DNA of 64,000 nt. Origin: a virus (taxonomy: Duplodnaviria; Heunggongvirae; Uroviricota; Caudoviricetes). The position numbers are program-made. The stretch is taken from IMG/VR virus record IMGVR_UViG_2718218139_000007, one strand, 5' to 3'. Positions within the stretch are counted from its first letter, which is position 1. Each line of letters begins with the position of its first letter. Of this stretch, positions 6,001 to 9,000 are shown piece by piece.

Positions 6001-9000
6001 CAATACGTATTTCATCTCGGAAGCCGGAAAGCGTTATCGCCGTGATGTGGCGCTAATTGTTCGCCAGCAGCGGCTGAAATTAAACCTGTCCGGAAGGCTG
6101 GTGATAAAGATTATTGCAGAGCCACCGGATAAGCGCCGTCGTGACCTGGACAATATCCTGAAAGCACCACTGGATGTGCTGACGCATGCCGGACTTCTCA
6201 TAGACGACGAGCAGTTTGATGAAATCAATATTGTGCGCGGTCAGCTCGTTCCTGGTGGGCGGCTGGGGATAAAAATCACAGAACTGGAGTGCGCATGAAT
6301 AACCACTATTTACAGTTTGTGCGTGAGCAGCTCATTATCGCCACCGCTGATTTGAGTGGGGCAACAAAAGGTCAGCTTGAAGCCTGGCAGGAGAATGCCA
6401 TGTTCGATACAGGGCGTTACAGGCGAAAAAAAATCCGGTACCGCGATGAAGTGACTGGAAAAATGATAACGCGGGATAATCCACCAATCCCGGGAAAGCA
6501 ATCGCTGGCGAAGGGGACGTCAATTCCTCTGGTCAGTCCGGTTGAGTTTTCGACATCATCGTGGCGGCGGGCTGTTCTGTCTCTTGAAGAACATCATAAA
6601 GCCTGGTTGTTGTGGTGTTACAGCGGGAGTATTTGTTGGGAATATCAGATCGCGATAACACAGTGGGCGTGGAATGAATTTAATACTCAATCCGGTACCA
6701 GAAAAATTGCTGGGAAAACGCAGGAACGCCTGAAAAAATTAATCTGGCTGGCGGCGCAGGCAGTAAAAGCAGAACTTTTTGGTGGGGAAGGTTATGAATA
6801 TCAGGAGCTGGCATTACTGGCGGGAGTGACAACTAAAAACTGGTCCAAAACATTTACTCGTCACTGGGTTGCAATGAAACACATTTTTCACCGACTGGAT
6901 AGTGAGGCTTTATTATTTGTAATGAGAACACGTTCAAAACAAAAGGCGGCATTTTCAAAGCAAAGTGTTGCAAAAGTAGATTGAAAGGCATATATTTCAT
7001 GCAAATCTGATATTTTGCCGATTTTGTACGTGATGGCAAAAGCAAACAAAACCCGCCCACAAGCGGGTTTTTTTGTGCCACTTATCTCGGATAGACATGG
7101 TGAATGCGCTGGTGGAGGAGATAAGGGTGATTTTTGTATGCTTGCAACATTGATTTCGTAACGTTATTATCCTGCGCCCGGCCCTTTAGCTCAGTGGTGA
7201 GAGCGAGCGACTCATAATCGCCAGGTCGCTGGTTCAAATCCAGCAAGGGCCACCAACCGCCACTAGCCATCAGGAAAGAGCGTCAACCCTTTAAGTTGAG
7301 TGTGCGAGGTTCGAGTCCCCGGTGGTGGTCCATTATCGGTATTCTGCGTTGTTAGCTCAGCAGGACAGAGCAATTGCCTTCTAAGCAATCGGTCACTGGT
7401 TCGACTCCAGTACAACGCGCTACACTTATTTTCCCGGCTCGCTTTTGCGGGCCTTTTTTGTATCTGCGCCACGCCCGGCGCATACCAACCACAGAGCCTT
7501 TCGGGGGGGGAGCTTACGGAGTGGTCAGTGTGACTTTCTCTGTGGGCAGATCGCTCCCGGGCGTTGGCTCACCCACCCAAAGGAACGTCACGATGTTTGG
7601 TATTTTTGGTAAAAAAAGCCCGCAGAGCGGCAACGGAAATTAAAAAGTTTGAAAAACGCGATCTGGCACAGGTGGTGATTAACGCCGCATACCTGGTGGC
7701 CTATGCAGATGGTGAATGTGAGGCTTCCTAGAAAGCGAAGATCGAACAGGTACTGCGTAATCAGCCTGCGCTGTACGCGTTTACGTCAGAAATTAATGCG
7801 ATTAGCGCAACCATTATCGGTCAGCTGGATACGAACTTTAAAACTGGTCGTCGTGCGGTGTTACGTGAGATCGAGGATGTGAAACACGATACGCGTGAAG
7901 CGGAAGATGTGCTGGATGTGGCGGTGGCCATTGCGGAGGCAGACGGCGAAATTGAGCCGGAAGAGCGCAAGGTGCTGGAAGAGATTGCCGGTGTTCTGGG
8001 TCTTCGTCTGGAGAATTACCTGTGACGGTAAAACTGCGCCTGACTGTGGCTGCACTCCTGCTGTTTCTGGTGGTGATGGTGGATTTCACCAGCAGAATCA
8101 TGTCGGTGCTGGCGGATGGGGTGCTGGTCTGCGGCATTATGGTATTGCTGTGGCCGGTGATAAAAAGAAACAGCCTGCATAATGCTTGATTTTTTTGTTT
8201 GCTGTTTATTAAAAACACTTCTGCATGGTGAATCCCCCTGTGCGGTGGGGCAATCAGCAAGAAGGAATATGGGGTAATCGCGGATTCAGGTGCTGATACT
8301 GAATTCACCGGGAGGCACCCGGCACCATGCTTTGCCACAAAAGTGTTATTTCTGTTTTTCTCAAACTATCATCGTTATCCCTTTATTTTCGGCTGCGCAT
8401 GGCGCGGCCTTTTTTTTACGACCAGCCACTGGCAGATGGTCATCCTGTGATTTGATTCCGCTTCCGGCTTTTTAACTCTGTTCCTCTACACGGGAGAAAT
8501 TCGATGTCGATTAAACATTACGATGTTGTCAGGGCGGCGTCGCCGTCAGACCTTGCGGAAAAGCTGACACACAAACTGAAAGAGGGCTGGCAGCCATACG
8601 GCGGACCGGTTGCCATTACGCCGTACACACTGATGCAGGCGGTGGCTATTGAAGGAGAGCCACAGGTCGGCCCTTCATCTGAGCCGGATTGGTACTACGT
8701 CATCGTACTGGCCGGGCAGTCCAATGCCATGGCTTACGGTGAAGGGCTTCCGCTGCCGGATTCATACGATGCTCCGGATCCGCGCATTAAACAGCTGGCG
8801 CGCCGCAGTACAGTGACGCCGGGCGGGGCTGCCTGCAGATATAACGATATTATTCCGGCTGACCACTGTCTGCATGATGTGCAGGATATGAGTACGCTGA
8901 ATCATCCGAGGGCTGACCTGAGCAAAGGGCAGTACGGCTGTGTCGGCCAGGGTTTACATATTGCCAAAAAACTGCTCCCGTATATCCCGAATAACGCGGG

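Follow-up and report, generated by a model that had tools for sequence, protein, structure and literature searches.

A non-canonical tRNA gene downstream of Q in a Caudoviricetes sequence is probably an eroded allele of a widespread prophage lineage with C33

We report here on a cluster of three transfer RNA (tRNA) genes in a 64,000-nucleotide (nt) stretch of Caudoviricetes DNA (IMG/VR record IMGVR_UViG_2718218139_000007), which is called the window in the following. The genes lie head to tail on the + strand, downstream of the gene for the late antiterminator Q, and were placed by ARAGORN at 7180-7255, 7257-7332 and 7346-7420. Our main finding concerns the middle gene, which we regard, with a probability of about 0.6, as an eroded allele of a distinct and widespread prophage tRNA lineage and as a non-decoding, dead or severely impaired copy between two working tRNAs. 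The lineage itself may have arisen from the body of the phage tRNA-Arg gene argN by a shift of the anticodon to UUU (lysine), together with the fixation of C33.

An earlier note made from the sequence had described the trio, at 7180-7422, as two good tRNAs with CAU and UCU anticodons flanking a non-canonical gene, in the ileZ-argN-argO type of arrangement present downstream of Q in Shiga toxin (Stx) phages, and this description agrees with our results. The first gene (7180..7255) is a canonical tRNA-Ile2(CAU) of the ileZ type with an encoded CCA; it scores 72.5 bits on the Rfam tRNA model RF00005 and is labelled tRNA-Ile by the Prokaryotic Genome Annotation Pipeline (PGAP). The third gene (7346..7419, or 7346-7420 in the ARAGORN call) is a tRNA-Arg(UCU) of the argO type with a canonical cloverleaf, a score of 68.1 bits and the PGAP label tRNA-Arg. 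As the note had also stated, CCA is not encoded at its end, which reads ...ACAACGCG-CTA with the CTA at 7420-7422. The same G-CTA end is present in 18 of the 92 argO copies of the fetched loci, where it accompanies the T-loop variant GGTTCGACTCC, and it is therefore a real haplotype; such a tRNA-Arg would depend on the host to trim its 3' end and add CCA. The middle gene (7257..7332, 'tRNA-Lys(ttt)' in ARAGORN) starts 1 nt after the CCA of tRNA-Ile2 and ends 13 nt before the third tRNA. The whole 401-nt cluster region is found at >=99% identity in 221 complete Escherichia coli genomes; the matches listed are all 100% identical and are mostly non-O157 Shiga toxin-producing E. coli (STEC) such as O26, O103, O111 and O145. 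Since the region is identical across the genomes listed and the middle gene is ~79% identical to the reference argN of Stx2a phages, its resemblance to a tRNA gene is not a chance match.

In the ARAGORN drawing, the acceptor stem of the middle gene has seven of seven pairs, one of them a wobble (G3·U70), and the anticodon stem has five of five, with a purine (A) at position 37. The D stem is reduced to two pairs, G10-C25 and C11-G24, where a canonical tRNA has three or four, and the T stem has four of five pairs with the mismatch A51xC63; the T-loop box GGTTCGAGTCC, G18 and G19 are present. The anticodon loop reads C32-C33-U34-U35-U36-A37-A38 and has C33 where a canonical tRNA has U33, a nucleotide which is among the most conserved in tRNAs and which normally forms the U-turn. 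The main determinant for arginyl-tRNA synthetase is C35, and the middle gene has U at this position. Its UUU, with U36-A37-A38, is a lysine anticodon, and the loop differs from that of the host tRNA-Lys (CUUUUAA; general knowledge and PMC12409363) solely at position 33. The discriminator is U73 rather than the A73 of tRNA-Lys and is followed by an encoded CCA. The body of the gene is homologous to argN, and its place, between ileZ and argO downstream of Q, is the argN slot. None of the standard predictions returned a canonical tRNA: ARAGORN gives the non-canonical structure described above, PGAP makes no call, and our scan of 7100-7500 at E<=10 returned no RF00005 match over the gene, which consequently fails the 29-bit gathering threshold of this model. 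The best match within the clan is to the selenocysteine tRNA (tRNA-Sec; 15.7 bits, E=2.1).

To place this gene among its relatives, IMG/VR was scanned with three patterns (the middle-gene 3' end, the ileZ 3' end and the anticodon arm) and the sequence following ileZ was tabulated. The CCUUUAA loop occurs in at least 120 IMG/VR contigs, and indeed in more, and the class bearing it is the commonest occupant of the post-ileZ slot in the sample. Its dominant allele, which also dominates IMG/VR, is 77 nt long (CCGCCACTAGCTCATCAGGAAAGAGCGTCAACCCTTTAAGTTGAGTGTGCGAGGTTCGAGTCCCCGGTGGCGGTCCA) and has an intact D stem (GCUC/GAGC), a perfect acceptor stem and a score of 44.4 bits on RF00005. The window allele differs from it by the loss of U12 and by C70U only, and the two-pair D stem of the window copy is thus due to the deletion of U12. 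C33, UUU and the T-stem mismatch are common to the 77-nt allele and are therefore characters of the lineage, not of the window haplotype. The suggestion in the earlier note that the middle gene may be a decayed or unusual tRNA holds in that the gene is non-canonical and in part decayed. The D-stem deletion and G3·U70 are specific to this haplotype; C33, UUU and the T-stem mismatch, being fixed in a widespread lineage, are not decay peculiar to this copy.

The middle gene is present at >=95% identity in 756 of the 5426 complete E. coli genomes, of which 221 carry the eroded allele exactly as in the window and 535 fall in the 95-99% band. Among the matches listed for these 535 genomes, PGAP labels the intact form tRNA-Lys; the window allele is left unannotated among the matches listed, those at 96-97% identity being labelled tRNA-Lys. 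A scan of a genome-contig collection with one genome per species returned E. coli and Shigella flexneri only, which shows a narrow host range and says nothing on prevalence. Position 33 is invariant across 67 distinct cluster haplotypes, and no contig in IMG/VR combines the lineage body with a CUUUUAA loop. The single U33 relative that we found (L127:4006-4082, - strand) is fully canonical for a tRNA-Lys(UUU): its loop reads CUUUUAU, its stems are perfect, and one more pair (4:69, U-A) is compensated. It forms a cluster of two genes with ileZ.

The usual setting of the 77-nt allele is a cluster of the order Ile(CAU)-Lys(UUU, C33)-Thr(UGU)-Gly(UCC), which is found at full length in 631 of the 5426 genomes. 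A part of the cluster query is found in 5420 of the 5426, in nearly all of them at >=99% identity, and its matches on Salmonella chromosomes belong to a Tyr-Thr-Gly tRNA operon; the Thr and Gly genes of the cluster are taken to be near-identical to the host thrU and glyT. A common C33 variant (L008:987-1069 and related loci, allele CCGYCACCAGTTCATC...) has C8 for the near-universal U8 and a wobble U11·G24 and scores under the Rfam gathering threshold; a set of E. coli copies which align only from query position 12 is also left unannotated by PGAP. In seven IMG/VR contigs (L225, L226, L228, L229, L230, L245 and L246), the thrU-like third gene of the Ile-Lys-Thr-Gly cluster carries G35U and is thereby a second Lys(UUU) gene, with the loop CUUUUAA (for example at L225:3498-3528), and in at least five of these seven loci the middle gene is a variant with a restored A51-U63 pair and G73.

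The deletion of U12 has a marked effect on predicted stability. Plain minimum free energy (MFE) folding was discarded as a discriminator since neither the intact nor the window C33 allele gives a cloverleaf as its MFE structure, and the gap between cloverleaf and MFE was used instead. For the intact 77-nt allele the cloverleaf has -22.3 kcal/mol against an MFE of -25.0, and for the window allele -15.1 against -23.3, so that the deletion costs the cloverleaf ~7 kcal/mol and leaves a gap of 8 kcal/mol to competing folds. From this loss in stability and from the failure on the tRNA model we infer a loss of function: as C33 and a mismatched T stem come on top of a D stem of two pairs, the window copy is probably not a working decoder. 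All 16 of the C33-type copies found in an ileZ-X-argO arrangement are damaged (13 by the U12 deletion and three by deletions in the anticodon arm), as against indels in three of ~103 copies in the Ile-Lys-Thr-Gly arrangement, proportions that are biased because two of the three IMG/VR scans only picked up copies whose anticodon arm or T arm is intact. Some UCG alleles, for example at L040, have the same 3' third as the window allele (A51, G66, U70 and the argO-type spacer), and the window haplotype is therefore a recombinant of the two cluster types.

The U12 deletion lies outside any homopolymer run and recurs in 221 genomes, at least 13 IMG/VR contigs and 11 GenBank phage records. In this it is unlike the indels of a second tRNA cluster in the window, ileZ-argN(UCU)-argO (56218..56468, + strand; ARAGORN, Rfam and genome comparison), which lies upstream of stx2 and contains private 1-nt homopolymer indels. 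The earlier note had proposed 56200-56480 as a comparator, and it turned out to be a poor reference, as its homopolymer indels are found in 0 of 5426 genomes. Compared with its best matches, the second cluster differs by homopolymer-length indels only: in ileZ they affect the T loop, in argN the D loop and the T stem, and in stx2A the start of the gene. The latter gene is split into several open reading frames (ORFs; 56577-56948 and 57004-57510), stx2B (57526-57795) is intact, and the second-cluster/stx2 region (56200-56620 and 56538-57795) has no match at >=99% in the 5426 complete E. coli genomes. Such indels have the look of errors in the sequence, or of an alteration made on purpose, rather than of a biological difference. 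The second cluster was for this reason set aside as an argN reference, and argN(UCU) of strain PV15-279, a canonical 77-nt tRNA labelled tRNA-Arg by PGAP, was used instead together with IMG/VR alleles.

Comparison with this reference bears on the possibility that the middle gene is simply an argN, that is a tRNA-Arg gene, which has decayed in place, its C33, UUU and mismatches being random, recent and specific to this copy. The gene does occupy the argN slot, it is ~79% identical to the reference argN, and the slot shows frequent pseudogenisation. However, hundreds of genomes have the same anticodon loop and the same mismatch in the T stem, with intact stems in the Ile-Lys-Thr-Gly cluster, and only the U12 deletion and C70U are haplotype-specific. 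The C33 lineage as a whole is ~80% identical to argN and is set apart from the Arg class by three compensatory stem-pair switches: 7:66 from U-A to C-G, 27:43 from C-G to U-A and 30:40 from G-C to A-U. Although these switches represent few events inherited by many sequences, all three are fully compensated and without broken intermediates, which is unlike random decay and argues that they are not its product. Decay in place is already contradicted by the lineage, annotation and pair-switch evidence, and we give it very little credence.

An alignment of 56 distinct alleles points in the same direction. Cloverleaf pairs were counted in it, with the 3' partners slid by 1-3 columns as a control, and standard pairs were found in 95.9% of the cells compared to 29-53% with slid partners. 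The pairing and the compensated switches show that the C33 lineage has evolved under a structural constraint like that of a tRNA, and C33 is fixed in it. Within the module, ileZ has a nucleotide diversity of 0.002, the middle gene one of 0.016 and thr one of 0.009. The flanks were tried as a neutral yardstick for the middle-gene diversity and rejected, being mosaic and non-homologous (pi ~0.25-0.3) and hence uninformative on selection on the middle gene.

The slot after ileZ is highly polymorphic across the IMG/VR loci. Besides the CCUUUAA class, it is occupied by a canonical tRNA-Arg(UCG) or, more rarely, a tRNA-Arg(UCU), with the loops CUUCGAA and CUUCUAA, which are the 'argN' of Stx phages; the names argN, argO and ileZ are those used in GenBank records. 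Other occupants have internal deletions (L133 and L097), and L138 has no middle gene at all. At L132:2718 onward and about two dozen further loci, a 'scrambled' allele keeps both acceptor strands but has exchanged the anticodon arm and T loop for unrelated sequence (CCGCCATTAGCTTATCAGGAAGAGCAGACGACACGATAACAGGG...). The scrambled, deleted and absent middle genes make it clear that the slot tolerates loss.

Such alleles could also be seen as signs of another role, in which the middle gene is a non-decoding, tRNA-like processing element, retained because its RNase P 5' cut and 3' trimming are required to mature the neighbouring tRNAs. The spacer to ileZ is 1 nt in the window and in all C33-class clusters, and where the anticodon arm has been scrambled or deleted, the two acceptor strands and a T-like hairpin are still there. 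On the other hand, L138 does without a middle gene, and the retention of the acceptor stem may only reflect that the lesions are recent. As the reason for the existence of the gene we hold this role to be improbable. On the reading that we prefer, that of an eroded tRNA gene, the three genes are probably transcribed together into a single precursor, both from the promoter of the cluster and through Q-dependent read-through. As the acceptor stem, T arm and CCA of the middle gene are intact, RNase P probably still cuts at its 5' end, and this cut would also free the 3' end of tRNA-Ile2, 1 nt away, and so help the neighbour to mature. The middle gene may then persist because it is wedged between two useful tRNAs.

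Several observations speak against the loss of function proposed here. The allele is identical in 221 genomes and has decayed no further than C70U, which could mean a recent spread or a retained function. The T loop is intact, as are G18, G19, U8 and A14; the gene is still recognised as a tRNA by ARAGORN, and DFAST/ARAGORN-based GenBank records label the window allele tRNA-Lys. Some natural tRNAs function with weak D arms, and our MFE comparisons leave out tertiary contacts and base modifications.

If the gene does work, it might do so as a tRNA-Lys(UUU) variant which evades or soaks up the tRNA-Lys-directed nucleases PrrC, RloC and PARIS AriB. C33 and the foreign anticodon stem would then be adaptive and the weak D arm tolerated. 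For the window copy we consider this unlikely, although it is favoured by several features. C33 is fixed, the CCUUUAA loop being present in more than 120 IMG/VR contigs as against one relative with U33 (L127). Codon supplementation accounts for the genes that read AUA (Ile, CAU), AGA (Arg, UCU), ACA (Thr, UGU) and GGA (Gly, UCC); host tRNA-Lys(UUU) is abundant, and supplementation therefore explains a Lys(UUU) gene poorly. An independent second shift to UUU is seen in the thrU-derived gene of the same cluster type in the seven contigs mentioned above. PrrC cleaves tRNA-Lys immediately 3' of U33 (PMC2610378). AriB cleaves tRNA-Lys(UUU) between positions 40 and 41, recognises U36-A-A-U-C|A41 and needs U16, and its cleavage is blocked or impaired by U39A, A41C and U16C (PMC12409363). 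The middle gene has C33 at the PrrC cleavage junction, and C16 and G39-U40-U41 instead of the U16 and U39-C40-A41 required by AriB. Phage tRNA-Lys genes have been reported to rescue infection from PARIS and PrrC170 (PMC12409363; PMC11555353).

The post-Q position is occupied by tRNA genes in other lambdoid phages as well, namely tRNA-Asn(GUU) and/or tRNA-Thr(UGU) in SfI, Sf6, ST64T, PS3 and 21 (PMC3636060), and Asn(GUU), Thr(UGU) and Lys(UUU) are the reported targets of PARIS AriB (PMC12409363). In phage SfI (L243, JX509734, 739-891), the Asn gene has C39/U41 and the Thr gene G39/G41, compared to U39 and A41 in the tRNA-Lys targeted by AriB. All of this support is circumstantial, however, and the window copy has a D-stem deletion and fails the tRNA models. 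U73 in place of the A73 of tRNA-Lys may impair charging, and C33 may impair decoding as U33 normally makes the U-turn. Differences from host tRNA-Lys at positions 39-41 are to be expected of whatever foreign tRNA body is considered and are weak evidence. Moreover, the Thr(UGU) gene of the cluster, which matches nearly every E. coli genome at >=99% and is taken as host thrU, keeps UAAUCA, the sequence recognised by AriB, and so would not escape this nuclease.

For the intact relatives the same idea is somewhat less remote than for the damaged window copy, though still doubtful. They may be temperate-phage tRNA-Lys(UUU) genes made from an Arg tRNA by a shift of the anticodon, with C33 fixed at the PrrC cleavage junction and with an anticodon stem and D loop devoid of the AriB determinants, which provide a nuclease-resistant replacement or a decoy for host tRNA-Lys, and the window copy would then be an inactivated counter-defence gene. 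If this is true, the lambdoid post-Q tRNA slot, with Lys(UUU), Thr(UGU) or Asn(GUU) depending on the phage, is a counter-defence and not a codon-supplement locus. A role of the cluster Lys and Gly tRNAs in tuning -1 frameshifting at G-GGA-AAG tail-chaperone sites was also considered and was set aside for want of evidence.

The surroundings of the trio are those of a lambdoid late region. The Q gene (6295..6984, + strand, in the ORF 6289-6984) is identical to a RefSeq region annotated as 'bacteriophage antitermination protein Q', at 7196-7885 of that region with an offset of 901 to the window. Its end is overlapped by a pR'-like sigma-70 consensus match (6968..6996, +; TTGCAA-17-TATATT), whose position suggests a late promoter. 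Between Q and the tRNAs, a hairpin read from the sequence (7052..7074, +; CCCGC-CCACAA-GCGGG followed by seven T) resembles the intrinsic terminator tR'; the terminator scan found it on the minus strand too, and a terminator function is putative. With this strong hairpin ~55 nt downstream of the pR'-like site (6968-7074), a short transcript initiated at pR' would end at the tR'-like terminator, an arrangement that resembles the StxS/6S-type short late transcripts of lambdoid phages.

A second consensus match (7142..7170, +; TTGCAA-17-TATTAT with the G+C-rich discriminator CCTGCGCCC) ends 9 nt 5' of the first tRNA and is probably the promoter of the tRNA cluster itself. The same promoter-like sequence lies 5' of the second cluster and, in the consensus, of related clusters. 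A terminator-like hairpin found by the terminator scan (7436..7463, +; GGCTCGC-TTTT-GCGGGCC and a T run) closes the tRNA operon. Being matches to consensus, these promoter-like and terminator-like sites would frame the trio as a separate transcription unit. Overlapping ORFs of 62-77 amino acids on either strand were considered as an explanation of the tRNA region and are without support, tRNA homology accounting for the sequence.

Strain E2865 carries the cluster in a lambdoid prophage, immediately after Q. Next come a TerB-like pseudogene, a SASA esterase gene and the holin and lysozyme genes; no stx gene is annotated downstream of the cluster in this prophage. Of the association with toxin-converting phages made in the earlier note, the gene arrangement stands, but in the window it is the second cluster that stx2 follows. 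GenBank records name the corresponding prophage PPompW, and PPompW are defective prophages that serve as integration targets of Stx2a phages (PMC8112680). Other Rfam matches in the window are STnc100 at 8194-8366 and 57868-58080, where it lies downstream of the first and the second tRNA cluster, a sok antitoxin RNA adjoining hokD (3694-3843), and isrK with the C4 antisense RNA (48844-49032).

Our searches of the literature on ileZ, argN and argO found nothing relevant, and what is said here on their original description rests on GenBank annotation. A lineage with C33, a Lys anticodon and an Arg body was likewise not found discussed in the searchable literature. As far as we could find, a widespread prophage tRNA lineage with C33, a lysine anticodon and an Arg-derived body has thus gone undiscussed. 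The window copy itself is a damaged allele and of modest interest, its analysis being mostly a clarification. One practical consequence is that members of the same gene family are annotated as tRNA-Lys, as tRNA-Arg or not at all, and what decides is a single-base deletion and the choice of pipeline. Should the intact form be functional, counter-defence by phage tRNAs would extend from virulent T5-like phages to temperate lambdoid phages with Shiga toxin and type III secretion system effector genes, and the lineage would offer a natural U33C variant for studying the requirements of PrrC and RloC at the cleavage junction.

Among known systems, the closest to the window trio is the ileZ-argN-argO cluster of Stx phages, for example the Stx2a phages and phage 2851. 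It shares the post-Q position and the gene order, has ileZ(CAU) and argO(UCU) on either side as well, and agrees in the promoter-like sequence and in the spacer before argO; its argN is ~79% identical to the middle gene. The differences lie mainly in the middle gene, which has UUU in place of UCU or UCG, C33, the three switched stem pairs, the A x C mismatch in the T stem and a D stem without U12. In addition, the middle gene is separated from ileZ by 1 nt, compared to 7-9 nt in the Stx phages, and no stx follows. The 'tRNA-Lys' that PGAP annotates in the Ile(CAU)-Lys(UUU)-Thr(UGU)-Gly(UCC) cluster belongs to the same lineage and has C33, UUU, A51xC63 and U73-CCA in common with the window gene. 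Its D stem retains all four pairs, it exceeds the RF00005 threshold, and the genes after it are thrU- and glyT-like, whereas the window form fails the model and is followed by argO.

The likeness to the PARIS-evading tRNA-Lys(UUU) variant of T5 and to the tRNA-Lys that rescues infection from PrrC170 consists in the nuclease-target anticodon and in differences at positions 16, 39 and 41, to which the window gene adds position 33. Those tRNAs come from virulent phages and have been tested experimentally; the window gene is from a temperate lambdoid phage, is known from its sequence, and has an Arg body, U73, C33 and a damaged D stem. tRNA recruitment by an anticodon shift is a further parallel, and E. 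coli tRNA-Arg(UCU) has reportedly been converted in this way to a functional tRNA-Thr(UGU) by Saks et al. in 1998. Here too the body of one isoacceptor would have received the anticodon of another, from Arg (UCG/UCU) to Lys (UUU), with pairing kept; unlike in that case, the shift comes with U33C, and the change of identity is putative. C33 is also carried by eukaryotic cytoplasmic initiator tRNAs, but these belong to another domain of life and have neither sequence nor role in common with the window gene, whose body is of the elongator type with a Lys anticodon.

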